DNA of 64,000 bases, taken from NCBI GenBank assembly GCA_045577945.1, contig JAZNJG010000142.1, positions 1,516 through 65,515 of the forward strand, written 5' to 3'. Shown one piece after another: positions 8,100 to 60,372 of this stretch (positions are counted from its first letter, which is position 1; each line of letters opens with the position of its first letter). The notes under the pieces were generated by a model. It was not told where the DNA came from. It searched no databases and saw only the letters and a program-made list of their open reading frames with translations. This DNA comes from Bacilli bacterium (GTDB taxonomy: Bacteria; Bacillota_I; Bacilli_A; ML615J-28; CAG-698). Both the position numbers and the translations under genes were made by a program.

Positions 8100-8137
8100 T
8101 CAAACATTCAATATTAAATTTAATCTTGAATGTTTAT
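8100..8137 (-). other. imperfect 14-bp hairpin at the 3' end of the TnpB-like gene
   Basis: 'aaacattcaatatt aaattt aatcttgaatgttt' (one mismatch); overlaps the stop codon. Confidence 0.45.
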
Positions 8138-9322
8138 TTTTTGTACATTTAATAAGTTTTGATAATTAAATGTATGGTTAAACCATAACAACCCATATTG
8201 TTTTGCTATATTGACAGCTGAATTAATATCCCTATCAATAAAAACAGAAGGAAGAATTTCAACAATTCTATTATATAGATTTGACTTGAATTCAATTTTA
8301 TCAGTCATGCAATTTAACTGACTCGTATATGATTCATTTACTGGTATAAATTTGATATTGTTTAGTTCAGCTTTATACTGAATGAAACTCTTAAATCTAC
8401 TCAATAATCCTTCATTTTGAGTTGATTTATTTAATTTACATTTATAATTCTTTTTACATTTTTTAGTTTGAATGTCTCCTACAATAATGTTATCTATGTT
8501 TTTAGATCTACATTCATCAATAATAAATTTTGATGTTTTGTGTAAATAATCTTTTCTTTTATTTGTTAATTTTTGTTGTTTTCTTTGTTTTGTTTTAAAT
8601 AATTTTAAATATTTGTTTGAACCTTTAACTTTCTTTGATAATTTAGATTTAATACTATTAATTTGTTCTTCTAAACTTTTAAATCTTTTAGTTTGAATTT
8701 TGATACAGTCACCATTTGATTCATATATAGAAGCAATGGATGAAACACCTAAATCAATAGACATAAAATTATAATTATATTCTTTTTCTTTCTTTTGTTC
8801 AGAATAAACAAAAATTAAATAAATATCTCCATTTTCATATAGTTTGAAAACTAATTGTTTAATCGTATCAATATTGATTACATTTGTATCATAATAATCA
8901 CAATTAGATAAATCTATGTTGATTTTGGGTTTATTAATTTGTATTTGTTTGTTAATAAATTTAAAACCACCACCAATATAAATTTTATCACCTCTTTTTT
9001 GAATATTGGCATCTAATAAAATTGGAGAATAAACTCTTTCATTTTTAGGATATCTGGCTGTTTTATCTTTCTTTTTCTTAGTAAAGTATGATTTTACTGA
9101 ATTAATAACCTCTCTACTGACATTTTGAGTATGTTTAGAATGGAGTTTGTTTTCTTTGGCAAAATCTTTAGTTATTTGATGAATTTTATTAAAATCGTTA
9201 TTTTCTTTGAGATTTTGCAAACATAAATTATAAACAGTTGATAGTGATATTGAATACTGTTTTAATAATTCAATATCACTATCATTTAGAAAACTATTTA
9301 TTTTAATTCTTTTTACTAACAT
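8120..9322 (-). CDS. TnpB-like (IS200/IS605 OrfB family) RuvC-like nuclease without the canonical zinc finger
   Basis: RuvC-I 'FMSIDLGVSSIA'; RuvC-III 'YTSQ...DRDINSAVNIAKQ'; N-terminal helical region as in OrfB proteins; no adjacent TnpA; the CxxC...CxxC insert is absent. Confidence 0.55.
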   Translation of the reverse strand: MLVKRIKINSFLNDSDIELLKQYSISLSTVYNLCLQNLKENNDFNKIHQITKDFAKENKLHSKHTQNVSREVINSVKSYFTKKKKDKTARYPKNERVYSPILLDANIQKRGDKIYIGGGFKFINKQIQINKPKINIDLSNCDYYDTNVINIDTIKQLVFKLYENGDIYLIFVYSEQKKEKEYNYNFMSIDLGVSSIASIYESNGDCIKIQTKRFKSLEEQINSIKSKLSKKVKGSNKYLKLFKTKQRKQQKLTNKRKDYLHKTSKFIIDECRSKNIDNIIVGDIQTKKCKKNYKCKLNKSTQNEGLLSRFKSFIQYKAELNNIKFIPVNESYTSQLNCMTDKIEFKSNLYNRIVEILPSVFIDRDINSAVNIAKQYGLLWFNHTFNYQNLLNVQKINIQD

Positions 9323-26145: not shown

Positions 26146-26925
26146 TTATAATTCCTCTATTGTTATATTTGTAATAACTTCATGGTCATCGTATTTTTCA
26201 GCTGTTTCTGGTTCGATATGGACACTGATTTTCTCGATAAAAGTATTTGCCTCATCATCAGTCATTTGAATATTCATATTCTTAATTGTTTTGCCTGAAT
26301 AAGATGGTCCGTATAAATAACCATACACTTTAAAAGAAAGATTTCTTGTTAATCTGCGACTTGTTTCATCATAAACACCTTCAAATTCATCAACCTTATC
26401 CATTCCTTCCCATGTTACTTTATATTCAGTATTATTAGATAAAAAATCGATATCATTTATATAGAATGAAAATGAAGGTGTAAAATAGGGTAAAATTTGC
26501 TCAATTAGTTGAAACAAATCGTTATTTCGAGTTGCGGTCATCCTAACATCAAAATTAAAAATTACTGGTATTCTATTTTTTATATACTTAACTTGTGAAT
26601 CTATACCCTGACATCTAATTGTATTTGATGAATTTAATAATCTTGATGAATCAGGTTCAATATTAGTTAAGTAATATGAAAGAATAGGAGATTCCATTTT
26701 AACCATAGCTTTATATAGATCAGGATTATCTTGCTGAACTACATTAGGATTTTTGATAATTGCATACCATTTTTCCTTATTAGAATATATTAAGGGTACA
26801 TTAATAATCTTTTTTGGTTTACCCTTAATATCTCTCGTAATTTTAAGCTCACTAAATATATAACCAAAAGAAGCAGTTACTTTTTTAATTATATCAGGAA
26901 AAAAATATTCTGTTGCGATAGGCAT
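26146..26925 (-). CDS. hypothetical protein (259 aa), isolated minus-strand gene
   Basis: long ORF. Confidence 0.45.
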   Translation of the reverse strand: MPIATEYFFPDIIKKVTASFGYIFSELKITRDIKGKPKKIINVPLIYSNKEKWYAIIKNPNVVQQDNPDLYKAMVKMESPILSYYLTNIEPDSSRLLNSSNTIRCQGIDSQVKYIKNRIPVIFNFDVRMTATRNNDLFQLIEQILPYFTPSFSFYINDIDFLSNNTEYKVTWEGMDKVDEFEGVYDETSRRLTRNLSFKVYGYLYGPSYSGKTIKNMNIQMTDDEANTFIEKISVHIEPETAEKYDDHEVITNITIEEL

Positions 26926-34341: not shown

Positions 34342-34469
34342 ATAAAACTATAATATTCACGGCACCCAAGGCCCGCAGTCACACTCGAACGACCATCATG
34401 ACCAGAACGAGCCCGCGAACCACAATGAGAACTATCGTTCCAACCACCACCAGAAAGCAAAACACCCAT
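34308..34469 (-). CDS. mini-ORF consisting of a decayed DGR variable-repeat copy (VR2)
   Basis: 54 codons, 'MGVLLSGGGWNDSSHCGSRARSGHDGRSSVTAGLGC...', in the same reading frame as the TR/VR1 codons. Confidence 0.3.
   Translation of the reverse strand: MGVLLSGGGWNDSSHCGSRARSGHDGRSSVTAGLGCREYYSFIYINFVIFQTG
34361..34466 (-). repeat. DGR variable-repeat-like copy 2 (degenerate)
   Basis: about 85 % identical to the TR; most differences are at TR adenines, a few are not. Confidence 0.6.
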
Positions 34470-34496
34470 ATAATTTTAAAAACTTTTATAAAAAAG

Positions 34497-34522
34497 AAAC
34501 AGCTCGTATCAACGAGCTGTTT
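34497..34522 (-). terminator. hairpin terminator downstream of the DGR target gene
   Basis: perfect 10-bp stem 'aaacagctcg/cgagctgttt', followed on the minus strand by 'cttttttat'. Confidence 0.5.
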
Positions 34523-34590
34523 AGGTTTATTTGAGACTGAGAGCTTTTAACTACTACGTAGTTGGGTCCCTGGACCTGAGGTCCCTCTCG

Positions 34591-35673
34591 CTACGCTTGG
34601 TTTATATTTGGACTACGCCCGCGGCACCCATCGCCCGCATTCACATGCGAACGACCAACAGCACCAGTACGAGCCCGCGAACCACAATCAGAACCATTGT
34701 CCCAATCACCACCAGCACGCAAAACATAACAAGCTCCGTAATATGCACCTTTTGATGTATCTTGTAATTGAGTCCATCCTGAGCCACCAGAAGCTGAAGG
34801 AGATTCTAGCCATTGCCAGAGATAGCCACACATTTCTTCACACCCGTAATTAGAAATCATTCTTCTACTCGCTGTATCTACGTGGCCACCAGAAGTTTTT
34901 GGATTTGGAGCAGCAGCACCATAAATTGAAGTTTTTTGATTAGATCCTTCAGCAGCGCATTGAAATTCTGTATCTCCTAGAGGTTGTTTCTTGACATACA
35001 TTAAATCTTCATAATGAAGAGGTGGGTTTCTTGAATCAGTTACTGTACCACCATAAACAGACATTGTATTGGTTCCAGTTCCAGATTGTAAATATATATC
35101 ACACCAGAAATTTAAGGGCTCAATATAAACCATACCTTCAGGCGAGCAGTGAGGGCGTCTATTCAAACACCAAACTGAAGCCGGTAAAATTTCTCCTGCA
35201 ATATAACCTGATAATGGGTGATCTGTAATTGTACCTACATTTACACATAATGTGTGAAATCCACCAATTTTTCTAGTATTATTAGCTGTGAATCCTGTCG
35301 GGTATGTTGAGTTTTTAGAACACTTAAATCCTATTTGACCATTATTATTATATATGTAAATATAATAATTTGCACCTGCATCTAATGTAGTCCCATTATC
35401 TAGTATATCTAATACATTTAATGTAGTATCTTCGGGTATTGAATAGAACATATCATTACCATCAACATTTAATCTAATAAATGTCCCAGCAGCTATTGTT
35501 AAAGTTTGTCTATCACTAGCTGACATAAAAGGTGTTGAGTATGCAGAAAAATCGACTTTAAAGTCTGCACTCGCTTTATTTTTAAGTGCATCAATGTCAG
35601 TATTCATTGTTGAGAGGGTATCTTTAAGAGTATCAACACGTTCAACAGGTATTTTACTTGTATTAACAACCAT
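34591..35673 (-). CDS. DGR target protein (putative receptor-binding/tail-fibre-like, C-type-lectin-type variable C-terminus)
   Basis: C-terminal 37 codons are the variable repeat; C-terminus '...AGGDWDNGSDCGSRARTGAVGRSHVNAGDGCRGRSPNINQA*' vs TR-encoded 'AGGNWNNSSNCGSRARNGNDGRSNVNANNGCRGR'. Confidence 0.8.
   Translation of the reverse strand: MVVNTSKIPVERVDTLKDTLSTMNTDIDALKNKASADFKVDFSAYSTPFMSASDRQTLTIAAGTFIRLNVDGNDMFYSIPEDTTLNVLDILDNGTTLDAGANYYIYIYNNNGQIGFKCSKNSTYPTGFTANNTRKIGGFHTLCVNVGTITDHPLSGYIAGEILPASVWCLNRRPHCSPEGMVYIEPLNFWCDIYLQSGTGTNTMSVYGGTVTDSRNPPLHYEDLMYVKKQPLGDTEFQCAAEGSNQKTSIYGAAAPNPKTSGGHVDTASRRMISNYGCEEMCGYLWQWLESPSASGGSGWTQLQDTSKGAYYGACYVLRAGGDWDNGSDCGSRARTGAVGRSHVNAGDGCRGRSPNINQA
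34615..34726 (-). repeat. DGR variable repeat (VR1)
   Basis: 112 nt; the 14 mismatches to the TR are all at TR adenines. Confidence 0.85.
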
Positions 35674-35683
35674 TATTTTTTTC

Positions 35684-36019
35684 CTATTTAATTAAAGTTT
35701 CAATTTCTTCTTTAGTAAACCCTATACGAAATATATATGCATTAGAGTCTTCAACGAATTCGTATTGATGACGAATAGGGCTTGTTAGTTTATTACCATC
35801 TTTATCTTCTTCCTCTATAATAATTTTATGAGTTTCATCTTCAACACCATCACCAACTAATTCTGTTTCTTGCCAAATAAAACGATTATCATAAGCTTCT
35901 TTTAATTTTTGTTTTCCATACATACCAAATAATTCAATACAGTTTAAGTAATCTTCTTTGGTATTAAAAAATTTAGGTAAACCTCTCATTAAACATTTCC
36001 TTTCTAATATTTTATACAT
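35684..36019 (-). CDS. hypothetical acidic protein (111 aa) upstream of the DGR target
   Basis: ORF; does not look like a basic Avd. Confidence 0.4.
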   Translation of the reverse strand: MYKILERKCLMRGLPKFFNTKEDYLNCIELFGMYGKQKLKEAYDNRFIWQETELVGDGVEDETHKIIIEEEDKDGNKLTSPIRHQYEFVEDSNAYIFRIGFTKEEIETLIK

Positions 36020-36073
36020 ATATTCAATAATATTTATACTAGAATCGGCTATGAATAATTGTTAAAAAAATAG

Positions 36074-36101
36074 TTGTTTTTTAATTTATTTATGTTATAA
36101 T
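36074..36101 (+). promoter_or_regulatory. sigma70-like promoter upstream of the DGR TR-RT unit
   Basis: TTGTTT-16-TATAAT. Confidence 0.4.
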
Positions 36102-36190
36102 CATAGATGTGATTATAAAAATCACAGGTTATAGGTTTACAATACACTGTAAGTTTTGCATAACGACGCATTACATACAAAGCAAAACCT

Positions 36191-36302
36191 TGTTTTGCAT
36201 GCTGGTGGTAATTGGAACAATAGTTCTAATTGTGGTTCACGAGCTCGTAATGGTAATGATGGTCGTTCGAATGTGAATGCGAACAATGGGTGCCGCGGGC
36301 GT
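36191..36302 (+). repeat. DGR template repeat (TR)
   Basis: AAY-codon-rich 112-nt segment 147 nt upstream of the RT; invariant template for VR1 and VR2. Confidence 0.85.
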
Positions 36303-36448
36303 GATATATTAACACCAATTTAGTTAATAGCCGAATCTATATTCCTTGGTATTAATTTACCAAAATAACACTAAGAAAGACTATCGAAGCTAGTAATAAT
36401 ATATGAACGTTTTGATAGTCTTAACCTTTATATAAAGAGAAGCATACT

Positions 36449-38119
36449 ATGAAGAGATATGGTAATTTTTGGGATAATATAGTTACAAAATCAAATATTT
36501 TATTATCATATTTAAATGCTAAAGTTGGTAAGAGAAAGAAAAGAAATGTAAGACGCTTTTATAAAAACTGGCGTGAAAATCTTGATAAAATACAACATTC
36601 TCTCAAATTTTTTACATTTAAAACTGGTCAATATAATAGCAAAGAATTATACGAACCAAAGAAAAGAGTTATATACATATTACCATTTAATCCAGATCGA
36701 ATCGTTCAACACGCAGTTATGAATGAAATTAAAAAGATCTGGAATAAAATTTTTATTAGCGATAGTTATGCTTGTCGTGACAAAAAAGGAATGCACCGAG
36801 GATCAAATAAAGTTAGAGGGTGGGTAAAGATTAATAAGTATTGTCTTAAAATGGATGTAAGAAAATTTTATCTTAATATTAATCATGAAATATTAAAGAC
36901 AATTATAAGAAAAAAGTTAAAAGATATATACCTTTTAAAAGTTTTTGATAATATCATTGATAGTTTTCCAGGTGAGATAAATGTTCCTATAGGAAATTTT
37001 ACATCTCAATGGTTTGGTAATCTATATATGAATGAACTAGATTATTATGTAAAACATACACTTCATTGTAAATATTATATTCGATATTGTGATGATTTTT
37101 GTTTATTTAGTAATAATAAACAACAATTACATGATTGGTCGGCTTTGATAAAGCAATTTTTAAAAGATAAATTACAATTAGAGTTAAGTAAAAATGATGT
37201 TTTTCCTGTAACAAGAGGTGTTGATTTTTTAGGTTATCGCCATTTTCCAAATAAAGTTTTAGTTCGAAAAAGAACTATTAAAAAATTTAAAAAAATTTTT
37301 AGAAAAATTGCAAAGAAAATTCAAGAAGATAACTACAATAATTACACATACATTCTTGGTTTTTTGAATTCATCTAAAGGTTGGTTAGATCATGCTAATA
37401 CTCATCGATTTAAAGAAAGGTGGAAAATTGAAGAACTAATTAAATTATTAAGAGTATGTGAATATAGTAAATTCAAAAAGCTATTCATATATGTTGCGAA
37501 TATACCTGCAAAAACATATATAATTAATGATGAGAGAATAAATGAGATTATTCAAGAAGCAAGAAGTATTAAAATTAACAAAACTCAGACAATGAAGAAA
37601 TCAATAAAAATAGATATTAGTAAATTAAAAAATTTTCAATACACACCATATGCTGAACCAGGTGATTGGATGAATTTGAGTGAACAATTTAAAATAAATA
37701 CTTTTAACGATATGGAATGTGAAAATTTATTTTTAAAAGAATTGGATATGAATAGTGAATTAAAGAAAGAAATCGTGTCATTATCAGATTTAATAGGTGC
37801 TAGTAAAATAAAATACCCAACTATTAAATTAGAAGAAATAATAGATATTGATGTACTAATACATAGTATGTATATAGCACCAAGTATTAAAAGTGAGGGT
37901 AAAGATTATGCACGATTTATAATTACAAAATTAGATAGTGATGAAAAGCTAACATTTACAACTGAAAGTGTATCTGTTGTTGATAGTGTAAAAAGAGTAT
38001 TAGCGAAATTTGATTCATTAAATATAAGTGAAGAATCTAGACCACTTATCAAATCTAGATTTGTATATGAATTTTCAAAAAAATCAGGTAGACGGTATAT
38101 AAAAATGATTTCTTTATGA
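36449..38119 (+). CDS. DGR reverse transcriptase with a ~200-aa C-terminal extension
   Basis: 'VPIGNFTSQWFGN' (DGR-type IGxxxSQ motif); 'YIRYCDDFCLF' (YxDD); 'VDFLGYRHF'. Confidence 0.85.
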   Translation: MKRYGNFWDNIVTKSNILLSYLNAKVGKRKKRNVRRFYKNWRENLDKIQHSLKFFTFKTGQYNSKELYEPKKRVIYILPFNPDRIVQHAVMNEIKKIWNKIFISDSYACRDKKGMHRGSNKVRGWVKINKYCLKMDVRKFYLNINHEILKTIIRKKLKDIYLLKVFDNIIDSFPGEINVPIGNFTSQWFGNLYMNELDYYVKHTLHCKYYIRYCDDFCLFSNNKQQLHDWSALIKQFLKDKLQLELSKNDVFPVTRGVDFLGYRHFPNKVLVRKRTIKKFKKIFRKIAKKIQEDNYNNYTYILGFLNSSKGWLDHANTHRFKERWKIEELIKLLRVCEYSKFKKLFIYVANIPAKTYIINDERINEIIQEARSIKINKTQTMKKSIKIDISKLKNFQYTPYAEPGDWMNLSEQFKINTFNDMECENLFLKELDMNSELKKEIVSLSDLIGASKIKYPTIKLEEIIDIDVLIHSMYIAPSIKSEGKDYARFIITKLDSDEKLTFTTESVSVVDSVKRVLAKFDSLNISEESRPLIKSRFVYEFSKKSGRRYIKMISL

Positions 38120-38579: not shown

Positions 38580-38650
38580 GGGATGTAGCTCAGCTGGTAA
38601 GAGTAGTAGTCTGATAAACTATAGGTTGTTGGTTTAAGTTTAGTACGAGG
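38580..38650 (+). pseudogene. tRNA-Ile(GAT)-like 5' portion without a matching 3' acceptor strand
   Basis: good acceptor-5', D arm and anticodon arm 'gtagt cuGAUaa actat', but no T arm or acceptor complement follows. Confidence 0.35.
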
Positions 38651-41690: not shown

Positions 41691-41765
41691 GGGAATGTAG
41701 CTCAGAGGAAGAGCGCTACACTGTCACTGTAGAGGTCGAGATATCGTAATTCTTCATTCCCGCCA
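41691..41765 (+). tRNA. tRNA-Asp(GTC)
   Basis: acceptor gggaatg/cattccc; anticodon arm 'ctaca cuGUCac tgtag'; atypical T-loop. Confidence 0.6.
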
Positions 41766-42767: not shown

Positions 42768-42960
42768 TAAAAATCTCCTTGAAAAAGGAGACAGAAACAA
42801 ATATAAATAATTATAGCAATTTTGATAATGTTTCTATCTCAATTGTTAGAAGATTTGTAAAACGGCTAATTTTACAAATCTTTGTTTTATATAATTATTT
42901 ATAAAAGTTTAGTTTTTAATGTGAAAATATAAATACTTTATATAATATTGTAGAAGTATG

Positions 42961-45172: not shown

Positions 45173-45181
45173 TATAAAAAG

Positions 45182-45215
45182 AAAAAGACTAGTTTTATTA
45201 CTAGTCTTTTTCTCT
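45182..45215. terminator. bidirectional terminator
   Basis: 12-bp stem 'aaaaagactagt/actagtcttttt' + T-run. Confidence 0.6.
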
Positions 45216-45254: not shown

Positions 45255-45620
45255 TTATATATTTTCTTCTGGATAAGGATAACGAGCTTTGATTTCTTCA
45301 ACTTTTTGCTTACGTTCTTCAATAAGTAGGTTGATTTCAGCAATAATCTCAGTAGTTTGCTCTTCATCACCAAGTCTTTGAATATGACAAGTGATAGGAT
45401 CAACCTCATTTTTGTAGGCTTCTTGTCTTGCTTGTTGCTGCTCTTCTTTTGTCGGTTCAGGTTTCTCAGGAGCATAGCCTTGAACATACCAACGCTCATC
45501 ATAACCTAACTCAACTTCCATTTCAATCATGCCAATAGATTGATAGAAAGAAGAGTTTGTACCAGTTCCAATGGACACTTCTTTAGTTTCGTCATTTATT
45601 ACTTTTGCATATTTTTTCAT
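45255..45620 (-). CDS. tail fibre assembly chaperone (Tfa-like), copy 1
   Basis: 'DPITCHIQRLGDEEQTTEIIAEINLL...YPYPEENI'; paralog of 46764..47156. Confidence 0.6.
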   Translation of the reverse strand: MKKYAKVINDETKEVSIGTGTNSSFYQSIGMIEMEVELGYDERWYVQGYAPEKPEPTKEEQQQARQEAYKNEVDPITCHIQRLGDEEQTTEIIAEINLLIEERKQKVEEIKARYPYPEENI

Positions 45621-45621
45621 A

Positions 45622-46764
45622 TTAATTTACTCCTTTACAAGGATAAAATGTTAATTGTCCATAGTTATTGTCTCGCAATTCTACAACATCTCCTGCTTCA
45701 ACAGGAACGCAACAACTACCATTCCAATAAGTAGCTGTACTGAAGGATAATTGAATGTCATTTATATAAAAAGATGAACCTGTTCCACCTGTTCCACCTG
45801 ATTGATATAAAATCCAACCTTTTGTAAGGCAAGTATAAGTTCCTTGTACTCTATTTAATACTAAAATTCCTGCTGTATAATCAGGCATATTAAGCGCATC
45901 ATTGTAATCAACTACTCTAAATGGAAGTTTAGTAGAAAACGAAGCTATTTTACCGTTATCGCTACTTGATTTAATATTAAATCTACCTATTACTAATTTA
46001 TCAGCACCTAGATAAGTGTTACCATTATACAAATAGTTATCTGATTTAACTAATAGATTTGAATACCAAACAACTGTATTGTCGTTTTTCAAAGCTAAAT
46101 CAAATGTTCCATAAGTTTCGCTACCCCAAGTATGTGTTACAACTTTACTTGTAACAAACTCAATACTCCTCAAACTACCATCAGCATTTCTACCATCTGG
46201 TATCAAGCCTTTAACACCCGGTAAAGCAAATACAGTTGAGCCAATATAACTAAAGCCGTTGAAGACTTGGTCAATAGAAGTAATAGTACCATCTGAAACA
46301 GTTACGATAGCTAAAGATAAACTCCAAACATCACTTTCAAGTACCCCGTTTCTATAAAATGCTACAGTCATTGTAGATGTATTATAAAACATTCCTGAAC
46401 CAGTTGGTGGTGTTGTACCACTTGTGCAAGCTGATGGTGATTGATTTGCCCAAGCTTTATTATCTCTTATATTACAAAACACAACAAAAGTCCCACTACC
46501 ACTATGAGGTGAAACAACCAAATCATTATCTAAAATTATATGCGAACCGTCACCCTTATACAGCTTACTACCTGCCTTTAGTGTTAGCACACCATCATTA
46601 AGCTCTAGTTTAATATCTTGTGGTATTTCTGTTATGCAGTTGGTGACGTTTTTAGAATACTTAGCAAAATTAACAAAGTTAGAAGGAACATTACCGAAAT
46701 CTCTATCAACTTTATCATTGAGAGCTTCAAGCACTACTCCAGCATCATAATTCACTTCGGTCAT
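45622..46764 (-). CDS. tail fibre/receptor-binding protein A
   Basis: 380 aa, Gly/Thr/Ser/Asn-rich beta-type composition; immediately upstream of a Tfa gene; GC-richer than the window. Confidence 0.55.
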   Translation of the reverse strand: MTEVNYDAGVVLEALNDKVDRDFGNVPSNFVNFAKYSKNVTNCITEIPQDIKLELNDGVLTLKAGSKLYKGDGSHIILDNDLVVSPHSGSGTFVVFCNIRDNKAWANQSPSACTSGTTPPTGSGMFYNTSTMTVAFYRNGVLESDVWSLSLAIVTVSDGTITSIDQVFNGFSYIGSTVFALPGVKGLIPDGRNADGSLRSIEFVTSKVVTHTWGSETYGTFDLALKNDNTVVWYSNLLVKSDNYLYNGNTYLGADKLVIGRFNIKSSSDNGKIASFSTKLPFRVVDYNDALNMPDYTAGILVLNRVQGTYTCLTKGWILYQSGGTGGTGSSFYINDIQLSFSTATYWNGSCCVPVEAGDVVELRDNNYGQLTFYPCKGVN

Positions 46765-47156
46765 TATTCATTCTCCTCTGGATATGGATTTTCTTCTTTT
46801 ATTTTAGCAACTATTTCCGCTCTCTTAACTTTAAGAGCATCAATTTCTGCAATAATATCTTCTGTCTGTTCCTCATCTCGTAAAGATTGTATTTGACAAG
46901 TGATCGGGTCTTTTTGGTCTCGATAAAGAGCTTCACGAGTCTGACGAACTTCTTCATAGGTTAGAAGTGGTTTCTCAACAACAGGAGCTGGTTTAGGCTC
47001 TGGAATTTTATTAATCTGAAAATAACGCTTGCCGTTTTCACGACGTTCAATAATTTCAGTCAATATTGCTTTGTTAGCATTGCACCAAGCTTTAGCTTCG
47101 TTGAATTTCTCGTCAAAAGTTCCGTCAATATATTCAATTATCTGTCCGTATTCCAT
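46764..47156 (-). CDS. tail fibre assembly chaperone (Tfa-like), copy 2
   Basis: 'DPITCQIQSLRDEEQTEDIIAEIDAL...NPYPEENE'. Confidence 0.6.
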   Translation of the reverse strand: MEYGQIIEYIDGTFDEKFNEAKAWCNANKAILTEIIERRENGKRYFQINKIPEPKPAPVVEKPLLTYEEVRQTREALYRDQKDPITCQIQSLRDEEQTEDIIAEIDALKVKRAEIVAKIKEENPYPEENE

Positions 47157-47169
47157 TTAGTATACCCCC

Positions 47170-48363
47170 CTATTTAATAGCATCCATTTTAATTTCAGCA
47201 ATAACAGCACACGCTCCCAACCAAGGATTGTATGCGGTTTTAGTTATGTTCAATTGATGGTATTTATAGTATTTCTGTGAATTAACTACAATTTCCCAAG
47301 TTGCACCTTGAGCAGTTACATCATTTGTCCAATCGCAAATATGTTCCCAAGTGGCGTTATCATTTGAACCCAAAACAGTTCCAGCAGTAACGCCTTTATG
47401 TCCAGAAGAATTCGAAGTTGTAATTGTAAGTTTTTTTAACTTCAAAGCTTTTGGATTATACATTATCAACCACTGTGGCATACCACCACTTGAGTGCCAA
47501 ATTGTACTAGTGTTATTGTCAAAAGCATTCCAATAAGCACCACTATATACACTCTTACCAGTAACAGCAAAGCTGTCACCGCCTAAAGTTCCATTAGCGG
47601 TTAAAACTGGTTGTTTGAATATGTTGTCATAAACCAATGTACTTCCGTTATATATTTTCGATATTTCCGTTGAACCAAAATATATTCTACTCATCTCTTT
47701 AGGTGGAACTGTAACAATATAATCATAATCATCGGCAGTACTTTCAATTCCTTTAGTACCTCTCCACCATTCTTCACCATTTATTTTGATGTAGGATTTT
47801 CTAAGGTCGATTGAACCACTAGTAAAAGCAGCCGCATAGTATTTACCGCCCGCTTGAAAGTCAGCACCAATAGCTATGTTATATCCAGAAGTAATAGGAG
47901 TGGTAACACTTGATGAAGCTTCTGGTGTGTAGATAACTCCATCAGTAGACAAACTTAGCTCGTACCCTGTTTCAGGATTATAAGAAGCTTTTGCATAATA
48001 GTCTTTGTTTACTTCAAGAGTAGTAGTTCCAGTAATTCCAAATAATAGGGTACTTGTATTGTTGGCATAAGCACCAAAATATAAATTATTTTTACCAGTA
48101 ACAACAACGTCAACAGGTTGATAAGCAACGCTTGAGGAGTTAAATAAACTCCTGCTAACACCTAAAGCACTCAAATTGAACTTAGCAACTATATCCCAAC
48201 TGTTTGAGTTAGGGCTAAAGTTCTCAGGCAACACAAGCCAACTCGTTGAACTGAAACCACTAGCAATACCATTCTCAATAGTTGGAGAGCCTACAACTGT
48301 TACATTAGGCTCTGTTCCGTACTTGTAATATTTCTTCAACACTGGATTCAAATACACAGGCAT
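47170..48363 (-). CDS. tail fibre/receptor-binding protein B
   Basis: 397 aa, Ser/Thr/Gly/Asn-rich; upstream of Tfa copy 2. Confidence 0.55.
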   Translation of the reverse strand: MPVYLNPVLKKYYKYGTEPNVTVVGSPTIENGIASGFSSTSWLVLPENFSPNSNSWDIVAKFNLSALGVSRSLFNSSSVAYQPVDVVVTGKNNLYFGAYANNTSTLLFGITGTTTLEVNKDYYAKASYNPETGYELSLSTDGVIYTPEASSSVTTPITSGYNIAIGADFQAGGKYYAAAFTSGSIDLRKSYIKINGEEWWRGTKGIESTADDYDYIVTVPPKEMSRIYFGSTEISKIYNGSTLVYDNIFKQPVLTANGTLGGDSFAVTGKSVYSGAYWNAFDNNTSTIWHSSGGMPQWLIMYNPKALKLKKLTITTSNSSGHKGVTAGTVLGSNDNATWEHICDWTNDVTAQGATWEIVVNSQKYYKYHQLNITKTAYNPWLGACAVIAEIKMDAIK

Positions 48364-48366
48364 GGC

Positions 48367-49410
48367 TTAGACCTCCGGTATGCAATATAGCACACCTTCT
48401 TCTGGTTCGACTGGTAAAACAGATACAAGCTTAATTTTATTTGATTCAGAGCTAATTATTTCTTCTAACCCAGAACCTCTATAATTCCCACCGTCTATAT
48501 CAACCTTTCCATTTAAGGCTTCAGTGATTGCTCCAATATTAATTTCAGTCTCTTCGCGTTTAGTGTTACCAACGTAGAAATAAAGATACTTCTTATTCTG
48601 AACTTCTTTATATTTAGTAGAAGATAAATCAGCGACTATACCTGATTTTGTTGGGTCTGTGGTAATACCTGTTGCTAAATACCCTGATGTTTGAGTATTT
48701 TGACCAGTTGTAGTGCCAACATTTTCTCCGTATGATGTTGTTAATCCTGACAATAATTGTGTATTATTGTTAACCCAACTTGTTAAACCCCTATCATTAG
48801 TTCCATCGGTCAACCCCAAAGCCATTCCATTACCAACAACAGGATAAGTTTTTTGCAAATCAAGCTCATCACTTATCTTTCTCGGTAACTTAAATCTCTT
48901 ATTCTCTTCATCTAAGATATAATACCAAGCAGCTCCAGTTAAATTATAAATCTGTTCAACAAGATTTGATTGATCCGGTAATACAATCTTATAATTTTTA
49001 GACGTCATATAGTATGTAATGAGTAACCCATTAACTAATTCAGTAGTTGGCTCAACTACTAAAGCTTTCTCATTAACTAATTCATTATATGCAGTATAAT
49101 AGATATCTCCATCTTGCCAAGAAAATGTGTCTGCTCTAATAAAACTCGCGTCAGTTAGTTTATGATCCTGCCAAGTATGAAAAAATAAAGGTAAAGCAGC
49201 TCCACCACCTAAACTAATTTCTTTCCAAAACAAACTATCTGATAAATTATTTCCTAAATTATTATCAGTGAGAGATTGATATAGTTTAATTTCTTCAGAA
49301 TCAGCTGAAATAACTGTATTATTAATATTATATGATTTTTCTGGTGAGTAATTGAAAATACCAATTGTATTATCTAAATCTTTAACTAAATTTTGAGGTA
49401 ATTTTATCAT
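48367..49410 (-). CDS. tail fibre/baseplate-associated protein (347 aa)
   Basis: structural-type composition; RBS 'aaggagg'; poly-G leader and late promoter upstream. Confidence 0.5.
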   Translation of the reverse strand: MIKLPQNLVKDLDNTIGIFNYSPEKSYNINNTVISADSEEIKLYQSLTDNNLGNNLSDSLFWKEISLGGGAALPLFFHTWQDHKLTDASFIRADTFSWQDGDIYYTAYNELVNEKALVVEPTTELVNGLLITYYMTSKNYKIVLPDQSNLVEQIYNLTGAAWYYILDEENKRFKLPRKISDELDLQKTYPVVGNGMALGLTDGTNDRGLTSWVNNNTQLLSGLTTSYGENVGTTTGQNTQTSGYLATGITTDPTKSGIVADLSSTKYKEVQNKKYLYFYVGNTKREETEINIGAITEALNGKVDIDGGNYRGSGLEEIISSESNKIKLVSVLPVEPEEGVLYCIPEV

Positions 49411-49446
49411 TATTAAATTACCTCCTTAATTTTTAATAGAGAGGAA

Positions 49447-49456
49447 TTACCTAGCG
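49447..49456 (-). repeat. homopolymeric (C)10/(G)10 tract in the 5' leader of the tail fibre gene
   Basis: the only mononucleotide G/C run of 8 or more in this AT-rich window; 37-46 nt upstream of the ATG at 49410, downstream of the late motif. Confidence 0.8.
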
Positions 49457-49537
49457 CCCCCCCCCCAGTCTAACATTGAAAAAATATGTTTATTGAACAT
49501 TTTAATCCCTTTCTATTAAAACTTATCTTTATACAAT

Positions 49538-49545
49538 TATTTATA
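49538..49545 (-). promoter_or_regulatory. T4-type late promoter motif TATAAATA (minus strand)
   Basis: + strand 'caattatttatata'; motif recurs upstream of other minus-strand structural genes. Confidence 0.45.
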
Positions 49546-49549
49546 TAAA

Positions 49550-49585
49550 ATAAAAGTGTCTATTTTTGAAATAGACACTTTTATT
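49550..49585 (-). terminator. terminator after the repeat-containing fibre gene
   Basis: 13-bp stem 'aaaagtgtctattt/aaatagacactttt'. Confidence 0.55.
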
Positions 49586-49606
49586 ATCTTTTATTTAGAA
49601 TAAAAA

Positions 49607-51043
49607 TTAGCCTGTGATAACTGCTTTATAAGTATCAGCAGCAACACCAGAAGCAGCATTGATTTTAACTACAACGCTATTATTTGATTGAACGATAGTA
49701 GCAAAAACAACTTGACCTGTAGCAGCTTCTTTCAACTGAACTGTAGCATCTTCACCGAATGTATGTTCAATTGTCCATGTTGCAACACCAGAAGTAGCTG
49801 ATAATTCAGGGTTATTAACAACTAGCTTGTGAGAAGCAGCAGCTGCTGCAGCCAAAGCTTCTTCTTTTGCAGAATTAATTGAACCTTCTAATTCAGTTTT
49901 TTGAGCTGTTACATTTTCAATTGTTGCGTATGTTTTAGCAACATCTTCTGATGTGATATAAGCAGACAAATCAACAGTTTCTGATAATTTATCCCATCCA
50001 GCATCAGTCCAAGCATAATTAGCACCTGTTTCTGTAATATTATAAACATCACCAATTACTTGACCTTCTGAAGGCAAATCAGAGAAAGTAGCAACTGAAC
50101 CTTTGAATTTATAAACAGATGAAACTTTTGCATCAACTTCTGCTTTTGTATAAGCATCACCAATACCGTAACCTGCTAAAGTTGTTGCTTTATCAGCTTT
50201 TCCTTCCAAAGCAGCAGCAACACCACCTGATTTAACAGGGTTTGTAGATTCAGCGGTTGGAACATCATCAAAAGTTAATACATCTTGTTTTTTAGCTAAT
50301 TCAGTTGTTAATGATGTTTCATTAACGTATTTAGAATCGTTAGTCAAATCAGACAATTTAGTTGGAACATCAGCAGCATTTGCTTTAACTGATAAACCAC
50401 TTACTAATTGTTTAACATTAACAGCAGCTGTTTCAGAAGTACCTTCAGCAACTTCTAATGCAGTAGCAATCTTAACAATACCTTTTACAGAATCAGAAGC
50501 TTCAGGTAATGCACTCCAAGAAGCTGCTTCACCGTTAGTTGTTAAATATTTACCTTCATTTCCTGCTTGAGCTGGTAATGAATCTTTAGCATTGACTAAA
50601 TTATCAACTTCAGTTTTTGTATAAGCATCACTAATGTTGTATCCAGCTAAAGTTGTAGCTTTGTCAGCTTTAGCAGCAACTGCACCATCAACTTCAGTTT
50701 TTGTATAAGCATCAGCGATACCATAACCTGCCAATGAAGTAGCTTTATCAGCCTTAGCATTAACAGCAGTATCAACTTCAGTTTTTGTATAAGCGTTTTC
50801 GATTCCATAACCTGCTAAAGTTGTTGCTTTGTCAGCTTTAGCATCAAAAGAAGCTTGTAATTCTTCTAAAGTTGTATATGAAACCCATTTAGTATTCTCA
50901 TAGCAATAAAATTTATGAGAAGCTGTGTTATAATAAATTTGACCTTCAACAGGATTTGCAGGAGCTGTTGATAAATTCTGAACAACGGCATTTTGCAATT
51001 CATTCTTATTAAGATCAAGCGATGTTAAAAATTTATATGACAT
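49607..51043 (-). CDS. fibrous structural protein with 28-aa tandem repeats
   Basis: five copies of '(A/G)KADKAT(T/S)LAGYGI.(D/N)AYTK(T/A)EVD'. Confidence 0.6.
50603..50854 (-). repeat. 3 x 84-bp tandem DNA repeats (plus a dispersed copy at ~50132)
   Basis: repeat starts at 50603, 50687 and 50771, 'atcaacttcagtttttgtataagc...'. Confidence 0.7.
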
Positions 51044-51067
51044 ATATGTTCATCCTTTTAGTTTATG

Positions 51068-51952
51068 TTAATTTAAATAGGCTTTTCCTGAAAATGATAG
51101 TGAAAAACTTACTATTAATTTAGATTTATCAATATATTGAACATCACCAACAACAGCAGTCATTGCTGAATCAACAATTGTTACGCTTGGAAATTTATTT
51201 AAGTTGTGAACGATTTCCCATTTTTTACTGGCAACATCTTGCTCAAATACAAAAGTATTTGATGTAACTGTTGATGAAACTGATAAAATACCACCTTCAT
51301 CAATATTCAATCCAGCACCAACAACAACACCACCTAATTGTTCATTAGTAGCTTTTGGTAGTTCATAATCTTTTGGTTTATCTTTTAAATCATTATAACT
51401 ACCTGTTGTTGCAACCATTGCAAGTTTTGAGCGTTCTTCTGATATTAAATCATCAACTTCTTTTTTAGTATAGTAGTTGGATAAATCAATATCAGTTGAA
51501 CCAATCATTTCATACTTATTATCTATCCAAATATATTCTTCATATACATTACTCAATTTAGTATCTTTTTTAGGAATAAAGTATATTGTACTACCTTGTC
51601 CTTTTTCTGGTAAAACATCAAGTATTACAAATTTAACTGTTTCAATTTTACCAATAGCTACTTTAATTGAGTTTTCAACATAATCTGAATCAACATAATT
51701 TGAATCATTTTTAAGTTGACTTGTTTTAGTTGGCACAATAGCTGATATTACATCATTCTTAATAATAATATTTTCACCAGCTTCATAAACAATACCTTCT
51801 TTAATATTTAAATCTTTTGTTGAAAGATTGCCAACTAATTTTACATTATTAATTGCAGGTAAATTTAATAAGCTGTTATAATCTGTTCCAGGTGGTATAA
51901 CATTAAATTTAATCGAACTATTATTTGTTGTTGTATTAGTATTTCTTAACAT
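51068..51952 (-). CDS. tail fibre-like structural protein (294 aa)
   Basis: Asn/Thr/Ser-rich N-terminus; in the structural block. Confidence 0.45.
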   Translation of the reverse strand: MLRNTNTTTNNSSIKFNVIPPGTDYNSLLNLPAINNVKLVGNLSTKDLNIKEGIVYEAGENIIIKNDVISAIVPTKTSQLKNDSNYVDSDYVENSIKVAIGKIETVKFVILDVLPEKGQGSTIYFIPKKDTKLSNVYEEYIWIDNKYEMIGSTDIDLSNYYTKKEVDDLISEERSKLAMVATTGSYNDLKDKPKDYELPKATNEQLGGVVVGAGLNIDEGGILSVSSTVTSNTFVFEQDVASKKWEIVHNLNKFPSVTIVDSAMTAVVGDVQYIDKSKLIVSFSLSFSGKAYLN

Positions 51953-52266
51953 TTAACGAGCTCTGGTAAGATTTTAAAATATATATTAGTTAATGTAGTA
52001 TATTCTTTACCATATGAATCAACAACCTTCAAAGCTCCATAAATACCACCAACAGGTAATTGTTTTGTTTCTTCTTTAGTAAAAAACAATTCAATCTTTT
52101 GACCATTTAAATTTTCATAAGTTTTAGTAATTGGACCTAATGTGAAAATTATACGATAATCAGATAAATCTTCAACATCAGTTGTTGCTAAAACTATTTT
52201 TTGGTCCATGAAATCACTATCATCACCTTGTCTTATAACTATAGGTTTCATTAAATATAAATCCAT
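51946..52266 (-). CDS. hypothetical structural-module protein (106 aa)
   Basis: ORF with late motif TATAAATA about 30 nt upstream (52294..52301). Confidence 0.4.
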   Translation of the reverse strand: MDLYLMKPIVIRQGDDSDFMDQKIVLATTDVEDLSDYRIIFTLGPITKTYENLNGQKIELFFTKEETKQLPVGGIYGALKVVDSYGKEYTTLTNIYFKILPELVKC

Positions 52267-52293
52267 ATTTCAAGTTCTATACTATATAATTAT

Positions 52294-52301
52294 TTATACA
52301 A
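52294..52301 (-). promoter_or_regulatory. late promoter motif TATAAATA (minus strand)
   Basis: + strand 'aattatttata', ~30 nt upstream of the minus-strand ATG at 52266. Confidence 0.4.
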
Positions 52302-52363
52302 ACAAAAAATGTCTAATATTTATATATTAGACATTTGATAAATATATTTTCTATATTTTTATA

Positions 52364-52705
52364 TTATTTTCTAAGCAATTTCTTCCACCAAGGCTTCTTA
52401 GTACTTTTTTTAATTTCTTCTCTGTGTGAAGTAATAATATTATCATTTTCATTTAGTAATGATTCGATATCATTATATGTAACAGATGCTTTATAGTATT
52501 CTAATGATGGTTGAAATAAAATAATATTTTTAATTCTTTGAACAGTTTTTCCACCTTTAGTTTTACCTTGTTTAATATGGCTGATTGTTGATTGTGGTAT
52601 ATTAAATTTTTGTGAGAATTGACTTTGAGTCATTTTATTTGTTTTTAAGTAATCTTGTAACATTACACTTACATCAAATACATTCAATTTCATAACTAAC
52701 TCCAA
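52364..52705 (-). CDS. XRE-family helix-turn-helix DNA-binding protein
   Basis: 'KMTQSQFSQKFNIPQSTISHIKQGK'. Confidence 0.55.
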   Translation of the reverse strand: MELVMKLNVFDVSVMLQDYLKTNKMTQSQFSQKFNIPQSTISHIKQGKTKGGKTVQRIKNIILFQPSLEYYKASVTYNDIESLLNENDNIITSHREEIKKSTKKPWWKKLLRK

Positions 52706-52771
52706 ATAATGTTAAATTAAATACATTTTTAATATAATATAAATTTTATATATTTCAACTAAATTTTTTTG

Positions 52772-55711: not shown

Positions 55712-55730
55712 ATAGAAAACCTCTTTATAA

Positions 55731-55738
55731 TTATTTAT
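55731..55738 (-). promoter_or_regulatory. late promoter motif TATAAATA (minus strand)
   Basis: + strand 'aattatttata', ~20 nt upstream of the ATG at 55711. Confidence 0.4.
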
Positions 55739-55762
55739 AGAGAGGGAGTTACCTCCCTCAAA

Positions 55763-60325: not shown

Positions 60326-60364
60326 TATTTTCTCTCATATACAGACATTCTATTATTATACAAT

Positions 60365-60372
60365 TATTTATA
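60365..60372 (-). promoter_or_regulatory. late promoter motif TATAAATA (minus strand)
   Basis: + strand 'caattatttata', ~40 nt upstream of the ATG at 60325. Confidence 0.4.

Follow-up and report, generated by a model that had tools for sequence, protein, structure and literature searches.

A Slippage-Prone G Homopolymer in the 5' Leader of an Exchangeable Fibre Cassette of a Large T4-Like Gut Phage

Introduction

The locus described here raises the question of whether a run of ten G residues in the leader of a fibre-type gene, in the AT-rich genome of a phage, is real and hypermutable, and whether changes in its length would alter the expression of the gene that follows. A first-pass annotation of the DNA had proposed this run as a candidate phase-variable switch of a receptor-binding component. 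In bacteria, phase variation by homopolymers is exemplified by the polyG/C tracts of porA and opc in Neisseria, the polyC tract of fim in Bordetella, and the polyA tract of vlp in Mycoplasma, and the tracts of the bacterial promoters are located upstream of the -10 element, either in the spacer that separates it from the -35 or in the stretch between it and an activator site. In the phages, the phase-variable homopolymers have been tied so far to frameshifts within the genes, as in the phages of Campylobacter and the contingency loci of the T-even phages.

The Phage and the Window

The source of the window (the whole stretch of DNA that was analysed, 64 kb in length, with a GC content of 27.4%) is a large, uncultivated T4-like myovirus of the gut. 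The window encodes a VrlC/DUF4815 protein of 1520 aa, a fibre with a collar domain, NrdD, an NAD-dependent ligase, and a GroEL-type chaperonin, together with a TnpB, a reverse transcriptase, and 10-12 tRNAs. No match to any deposited phage was found at the DNA level by megablast. Among the cultured phages, the best of the top 25 VrlC matches listed is Pelagibacter phage HTVC008M, with 31% identity, and these 25 matches are to phages of Pelagibacter and of the Rhizobium group, at approximately 30% identity, with no Campylobacter phages among them. VrlC proteins with 77-80% identity are encoded by metagenome contigs of 160-180 kb, at loci that also contain gp6- and gp8-like baseplate genes.

The G Tract and Its Surroundings

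The tract is a homopolymer of ten G residues (G10) on the minus strand, which is the coding strand, and appears as ten C residues on the plus strand at 49457..49466. The run of ten C had been recognised by the first-pass annotation, but at coordinates (49447..49456) that were wrong by 10 nt. The description of the run as the only G/C run of 8 nt or more was correct, and can be extended to runs of at least 7 nt throughout the 64 kb. By a first-order Markov estimate, approximately 5e-4 runs of G or C of at least 10 nt would be expected in the window, and approximately 0.025 of at least 8 nt, while G7 has four matches, against 0.22 expected, a number that was reached in none of 100 shuffles. No further G/C tracts were found, either in the window or in approximately 150 kb of the loci of the relatives. 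The threshold for the instability of G/C homopolymers, at approximately 7-8 residues or more, is exceeded by G10, and also by the G8 of the related strain L016, described below.

The tract lies in an intergenic region of 196 nt (49411..49606), between the genes that encode proteins of 478 aa and 347 aa, both on the minus strand (Table 1), and is found 47-56 nt 5' of the ATG of the fibre gene, outside its ORF. The arrangement proposed initially, in which the tract sits between a promoter motif and the SD and ATG of the fibre gene, holds, and all the components are in place, including the SD, the ATG, and TATAAATA at 49538..49545 on the minus strand, which belongs to an enriched late-promoter motif. 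Alone, TATAAATA is not above chance in the window (30 occurrences versus 30.3 expected), whereas the extended motif of 16 nt, TATAAATAATTRTATA, has 19 matches with up to two mismatches, against 4.5 expected, which represents an enrichment of approximately four-fold, and none of 100 shuffles reached 19. Copies of the motif that are exact or have a single mismatch are located 12-31 nt before five other genes, that is, the VrlC gene, the small gene that precedes the collar fibre, the 106-aa gene, a 259-aa gene (26146..26925), and the TnpB gene (8120..9322), and TATAAATAATTRTATA is also found upstream of gene modules in the relatives. As it is enriched, precedes genes, and recurs in the relatives, TATAAATAATTGTATA is, as predicted from sequence, a real late-type promoter. 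The distance from TATAAATAATTGTATA to the fibre ATG is 119 nt. A further copy of TATAAATAATTRTATA, at 42903..42888 on the minus strand, is also separated from the next ORF by a long gap, in this case of 120 nt.

Table 1. Coordinates of the features of the locus and of related motifs in the window.
Feature	Coordinates	Strand	Remarks
478-aa fibre-type protein gene	49607..51043	-	Stop at 49607; faint PTL_trimer match; one homologue named 'receptor binding complex'
Intrinsic-terminator hairpin, 14-17 bp stem, 3-nt loop	49549..49585		Ends the upstream 106/294/478-aa transcription unit
Late-promoter motif TATAAATAATTGTATA	49530..49545	-	T4-type TATAAATA plus conserved extension
SD-like AAAGGGA of the leader ORF	49506..49512	-	
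Leader ORF, MFNKHIFSMLDWGGGAR followed by a stop (at G10)	49447..49500	-	Contains the tract; ATG 49500..49498; putatively translated
23-nt inverted repeat, 87% complementary	49427..49525	-	Arms 49427..49449 and 49503..49525; the start of the leader ORF and the tract lie between the arms
Fibre SD AAGGAGG	49421..49427	-	Fibre ATG at 49410
Initiation-region hairpin, 13-nt inverted repeat	49395..49427	-	Arms 49412..49424 and 49395..49407; pairs the SD with codons 2-6
347-aa fibre/receptor-binding-type protein gene	48367..49410	-	
Rest of the cassette unit	45255..48363	-	397-aa protein (F5/8 type C domain); 130-, 380-, and 121-aa proteins
Terminator hairpin closing the cassette unit	45178..45215	-	
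Variant motif TATAAATAATTATATA	52283..52298		Precedes the 106-aa gene, the first of the upstream fibre unit
Further TATAAATAATTRTATA motif copy	55724..55739		
Exact copy of TATAAATAATTGTATA	60357..60372		Upstream of VrlC

The 478-aa protein encoded upstream of the tract is 46-51% conserved in the relatives L017 and L025. Its gene contains internal repeats of approximately 113 nt (50131..50882), in three copies spaced 84 nt apart and a fourth located 471 nt away, with 67-74% identity, a pattern that is consistent with a repetitive fibre shaft.

Length Variation Between Strains

A copy of the 478-aa protein with 99% identity is encoded by a contig of 3641 bp in an independent metagenome assembly, L016 (ENA ERZ28593639). 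The alignment of this contig with positions 52736..49192 of the window extends over 3545 bp, with 98.5% identity, 51 mismatches (1.4% divergence), and a single gap, which corresponds to the tract, with G8 in L016 and G10 in the window, a comparison that is based on the consensus of two metagenome assemblies, in which the values of G8 and G10 may be wrong by a base or so. The ten A/T runs of 6-7 nt in the aligned stretch have the same length in both assemblies, and no other homopolymer differs.

In the 378 nt around the tract (49232..49609), no substitutions were found, against the 5.2 expected from the rate upstream (P = 0.0055), and the absence of substitutions in this interval indicates that the change in the length of the tract is recent in relation to point mutation. 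The window and L016 differ between 49609 and 49232 in the length of the tract and in a flip of the terminator loop, and in nothing else, both of which are kinds of change that occur fast. The presence of the tract in two independent assemblies indicates that it is real, while the fast-changing nature of the differences indicates that it is unstable, and it is thus very probable, from the sequences compared, that the tract is both real and hypermutable. The leader is known from two sequences, those of the window and L016, which are identical apart from the tract, and a third sample (L019) ends short of this region. In practical terms, the tract is an unstable site, which should be treated as variable when the phage is assembled, compared, or engineered.

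The flip of the terminator involves the loop of 3 nt in the hairpin, which is reverse-complemented between the strains, with CAA versus TTG on the minus strand (window 49566..49568, L016 3169..3171), while both stems are identical.

The Fibre Gene and Its Cassette

There are 733 homologues of the 347-aa protein, and proteins of 490-497 aa, with 72% identity over residues 73-309, are the closest among them. The genes of these closest homologues sit directly after gp47/gp48-type baseplate genes of Mu-like gut phages, that is, in the tail-fibre position. No Pfam or PHROG family was matched by the 347-aa protein, a search of its model fold against viral structures returned nothing significant, and scans with protein patterns found no relative in IMG/VR or the GTDB genomes. 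The fibre-type designation that this gene received initially agrees with the position of the homologues, with a CBM5/12-like domain and matches to tail-fibre folds, and with the divergence of the C-terminal part of the protein between strains, and the protein can reasonably be regarded as a receptor-binding one of the fibre type.

The similarity between the window and L016 is lost at approximately 49192, which corresponds to codon ~73 of the fibre gene (L016 3543..3641). The two strains have in common the promoter, the leader, and the first 72 codons, and differ in the C-terminal part. Codon 73 is both the end of the similarity to L016 and the start of the similarity to the fibres of the Mu-like phages, and it is this coincidence of the loss of similarity with the start of the 72% identity that indicates that the receptor-binding part was exchanged at a sharp breakpoint. 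The fibre gene is the most plastic locus seen. The tract itself was rejected as the junction of the cassette swap, given that the similarity between the strains runs through it and ends only at codon ~73.

Of the remaining genes of the unit, those encoding the 130-, 380-, and 121-aa proteins are homologous to genes that follow the fibre gene in two loci of Mu-like phages (L001 and L003), and the GC content of the cassette is 33-38%, in comparison with 27% for the genome. The tract is located at the 5' limit of a host-range hot spot, with the exchange of the cassette at the fibre gene, and a diversity-generating retroelement elsewhere in the window.

Apart from the tract, a single G/C run of at least 5 nt is present in the window, a G6 on the minus strand (C6 on the plus strand) at 47165..47170. 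This run includes the final base of the stop codon of the 397-aa gene, and stands in the place of an SD, 8 nt ahead of the ATG of the 130-aa gene, while the equivalent site in L001 is AAGGAG. For the segment of the fibre gene between 48580 and 48920, which encodes residues ~164-277 of the 347-aa protein, there are matches to VP1, the major capsid protein, in many gut Microviridae, with 33-48% identity and E-values down to 1e-8. Judging by these matches, a domain common to the fibres of tailed phages and the capsids of microviruses appears to be present.

Distribution Among the Relatives

No G/C runs of at least 5 nt were found in the loci examined in the relatives with VrlC proteins of 55-80% identity, including the syntenic junction of L017 (VrlC 77%) and L025 (55%). 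After the gene for the homologue of the 478-aa protein, these two relatives have a hairpin, then an SD and another gene, whose product starts with MP(S/T)KFYNLDTD, and the junction is without the promoter motif, the long leader, or a G run. The plain junction of L017 and L025 indicates that the leader and the tract are specific to the present sublineage.

The comparison of related genomes, which had been suggested as a check, provides the G8 allele of L016, but no tract in the relatives at 55-80% VrlC identity. The claim of a hypermutable poly-G is upheld by the non-random nature of the run and by the difference between G10 and G8 in two nearly identical, independently assembled genomes, but it does not extend to the more distant relatives, in which the tract is absent.

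No copies of the leader were found elsewhere, when searched for by a flank pattern with a variable gap, in IMG/VR, the JGI metagenomes, and the GTDB genomes, and the patterns based on a single flank returned no match. The TTAGACTGGGGGGGG pattern was found in five IMG/VR contigs, which are unrelated and were discarded as chance matches. Within the window, neither the arm of the leader nor the start of the leader ORF has a second copy, with up to three mismatches allowed. The possibility that the leader is a repeated or mobile element was rejected, given the lack of another copy in the window and of any meaningful match in the loci of the relatives examined.

The Leader ORF and the RNA Structure

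The 5' leader, of approximately 120 nt, is unusually long and strongly structured, and contains the tract downstream of the promoter motif. It also contains a short ORF, of 15-29 codons depending on the length of the tract, which starts where a normal gene would, since its ATG is 29 nt from TATAAATAATTGTATA. A pyrimidine stretch, UUCCUCUCU, is found between the end of this ORF and the fibre SD, in the order of the minus strand.

The folding of the leader (49381..49531) has a z-score of -3.7, and none of 200 shuffles was as good. The initiation region of the fibre gene has the most stable predicted fold of 66 genes, with -11.3 kcal/mol, in comparison with a mean of -3.4 kcal/mol and a standard deviation of 2.5 kcal/mol. 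The fibre SD is 27% unpaired in the predicted fold, and the SD of the leader ORF itself is 16% unpaired in the equilibrium fold, that is, it is mostly paired. A structural switch of the RNA dependent on the length of the tract was considered and rejected, given that both the topology of the MFE structure and the accessibility of the SD are unchanged for G0-G14. No known RNA family was recognised in the leader, with sub-threshold matches restricted to the terminator hairpin.

The outcome of the reading frame of the leader ORF was computed for tract lengths of G5-G14. At G8 or G11, the ORF stops at a UAG located 40 nt before the fibre AUG, and at G7, G10, or G13, it stops at a UAA 36 nt before the AUG. 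At G6, G9, or G12, that is, at the 3n lengths, the ORF has 27-29 codons, and continues through the SD hairpin to a stop located 2 nt before the fibre AUG. The two alleles observed, G8 and G10, represent the two frames that are not 3n, and the 3n allele was not seen in the two sequences. That the gain or loss of a single G would join the leader ORF to the fibre ORF was rejected, as there is a stop before the ATG in every frame, and two in-frame stops separate the ORFs in each.

Possible Roles of the Tract

The tract is a slippage-prone G homopolymer in the 5' leader of a late unit that encodes an exchangeable receptor-binding fibre cassette. The proposal of a phase-variable switch can be retained insofar as the tract is real, non-random, and different in length between strains, but not in either of its classical forms, since a tract that lies outside both the promoter spacer and the fibre ORF is not subject to either of the on/off mechanisms, that is, promoter spacing or frameshifting within the gene. 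An effect of the tract on expression, by whatever route, is a serious possibility, which falls somewhat short of an even chance, and the same weight can be given to the reading preferred here, in which the tract would be a contingency-type locus that modulates the expression of the fibre cassette at the level of translation.

The route that may be envisaged for this modulation is the coupling of the translation of the fibre gene to that of the leader ORF. The late promoter TATAAATAATTGTATA would fire, and the ribosomes would load on the leader ORF, the SD and ATG of which are found at the normal distance from a promoter. The tract would then set the frame of the ORF, so that lengths of 3n+1 or 3n+2 (G10, G8) would lead to a stop 36-40 nt before the fibre AUG, which would stay locked in the hairpin that sequesters the SD, resulting in a low basal yield. 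With 3n lengths (G9, G12), by contrast, the ORF would run through the SD hairpin, which would be opened, and the coupled translation would provide a different, probably higher, yield. Slippage during replication would produce progeny with heritable and reversible differences in the amount of fibre. If true, a T4-like gut phage would be hedging on the amount of exchangeable receptor-binding fibre per progeny.

The features expected of such a coupling are all present in silico, that is, an upstream ORF with an SD and a start, an adjacent stop, and a sequestered SD, although the three coincide only at the 3n lengths. Even so, the geometry could be a coincidence, given that the read-through of 15 open codons in one frame of an AT-rich sequence is not improbable (the chance is approximately 0.2), and a TAA near an ATG is common here. 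For this specific mechanism, the coupling to the leader ORF, the assessment is that it is unlikely, and the tract is equally doubtful as a three-state translational phase switch, in which only the 3n frame would melt the RBS hairpin, with a stop 2 nt from the AUG.

The idea that the tract is hypermutable and yet functionally neutral, as a run in a non-coding leader that was either expanded by slippage or left as the scar of a junction, carries considerable weight, while still being rather less than evenly probable. The leader would have arisen when the lineage rebuilt the region between the 478-aa gene and the newly acquired fibre cassette, and its ORF would be what is left of a displaced gene, a vestige of the 5' end with promoter, SD, and ATG, while the length of the tract would drift without any effect on expression. 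The simple junction of L017 and L025 fits this account, by making the leader a lineage-specific rearrangement, as does the composition of the cassette, which is foreign-like and has homologues in unrelated Mu-like phages, and the start of the leader ORF, which has the exact geometry of a normal gene start, as a remnant would. The RNA folding, furthermore, is insensitive to the length of the tract, and both alleles observed are in frames that do nothing special. Neutrality leaves less well explained the persistence of a run of G8-G10 in a genome of 27% GC, where it should be rare and short-lived, and where only one is present, in the most structured leader and beside the initiation region with the strongest occlusion in the window, while a junction scar in particular is at odds with a strain breakpoint at codon ~73 rather than at the tract, which means that the tract is not the junction of the latest swap. 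A transcriptional role, through changes in the spacing of a promoter or activator, the pausing or slippage of the RNA polymerase, or the formation of a two-tetrad G-quadruplex (of DNA or RNA) at 11 or more G residues, is very unlikely, despite the fact that promoter spacing is the classical mechanism of phase variation at intergenic homopolymers. The tract does resemble the bacterial promoter-spacer systems, in which expression is graded, as a homopolymer that lies between genes and precedes one of the surface or adhesin type, but it differs from them in its location within the transcribed leader, with the only recognisable promoter motif ending at 49530, 63 nt before the tract (49466). By inspection, the flanking hexamers are poor matches to sigma-70 sites (TAGACT, 4/6), the best -10 candidate, GGTAAT, is without the A at position 2 and would have a spacer of 15 nt, and no promoter spanning the tract is found among the predicted promoter matches listed, which do not include 58 weaker ones, nor is there a nearby gene on the plus strand for an antisense promoter to serve.

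An origin of the tract, or of the G10/G8 difference, in sequencing or assembly, such as the poly-G of two-colour Illumina chemistry or the miscalling of homopolymers, must be kept in mind in the case of G runs of at least 8 nt, which are prone to errors, and of records that are both metagenome assemblies represented by a consensus. This origin is extremely improbable, however, for a run that is found at the identical position, with identical flanks, in two independent assemblies of different strains, that is located within long contigs, and that is shorter than would be needed for the joining of contigs with common k-mer sizes. The promoter, SD, and ORFs on its flanks are undamaged, moreover, and the difference is confined to this one homopolymer.

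Comparison with Known Systems

In the phages of Campylobacter, polyG tracts provide for the phase-variable expression of the receptor-binding proteins, as represented in the literature that cites the original study (Sorensen et al. 2021, Cell Rep 35:109214; cited in PMC10579305, PMC12823448). The present tract resembles those of the Campylobacter Fletchervirus in being a homopolymer of approximately 8-10 G, associated with an RBP gene in a T4-like myovirus of low GC (~27%), in the variation of its length between closely related genomes, and in the mixed progeny that is the proposed outcome. The tracts of the Fletchervirus are reportedly located inside coding sequences, where they are said to act by frameshift, with several per genome, whereas the 64 kb examined here have a single tract, which is in the 5' leader and not in the fibre ORF. 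Nor is the phage a relative of the Fletchervirus (Eucampyvirinae), with no megablast match, and none of these phages among the top 25 VrlC matches.

In the T-even phages, homopolymers of at least 6 nt mutate at approximately 7e-4 and act as contingency loci, which in T2/T4 are mostly inside ORFs, with few in intergenic regions, while SSRs are under-represented in the tail-fibre genes (Gomez, Barrick and Waters 2025, bioRxiv 10.1101/2025.10.21.683753). The tract has in common with these loci the T4-type replication background and the slippage of a homopolymer, which leads to reversible variants at high frequency, but it is unlike the functionally studied agt and rIIA, which in the same study are A runs inside ORFs, and a G10 in an AT-rich genome, located in a leader, is not described there. 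If functional, the tract would represent a leader-located variant of the idea of the contingency locus, and if not, an ordinary unstable homopolymer.

Translational coupling and control by leader ORFs are known from the coat-lysis and coat-replicase pairs of MS2 and from the erm leader peptides, and RBS hairpins are known from e, soc, and gene 49 of T4. In these cases, as here, the regulated SD is paired in a hairpin that can be opened by upstream translation, but their upstream frame is fixed, or the control is exerted by stalling or by an alternative promoter, whereas the frame would be set here by a mutable homopolymer. We know of no SSR-controlled translational coupling in a phage. If true, the tuning of a receptor-binding cassette by a leader tract, through coupling, would represent a different viral route to mixed progeny, and large gut phages of an uncultivated lineage would be added to those in which the phenomenon is known.

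Other Elements of the Window

Genes of the TnpB type (OrfB_IS605 / Cas12f-like TNB) are found in the window, at 8120..9322, and in three relatives (L014 16362..17549; L017 14263..15444; L010 3594..3833), where they directly adjoin fibre modules. Two tRNA-like matches to Rfam, at 38586..38644 and 41691..41762, are absent from the ARAGORN list, and one of them, which scores just the 29.4 bits of the gathering threshold and is limited to positions 8-63 of the model, may be a degenerate tRNA.

The diversity-generating retroelement is located at 34360..38119, with a reverse transcriptase gene (RVT_1) at 36449..38119, and a template repeat of 112 nt (36191..36302) just upstream of this gene. There are two variable repeats on the opposite strand, VR1 (34615..34726), at the 3' end of a 360-aa gene (34591..35673), and VR2 (34360..34464). 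The mismatches are concentrated at the adenines of the template, with 15 of 15 between the template and VR1, and 16 of 17 between the template and VR2. The retroelement is working-looking.
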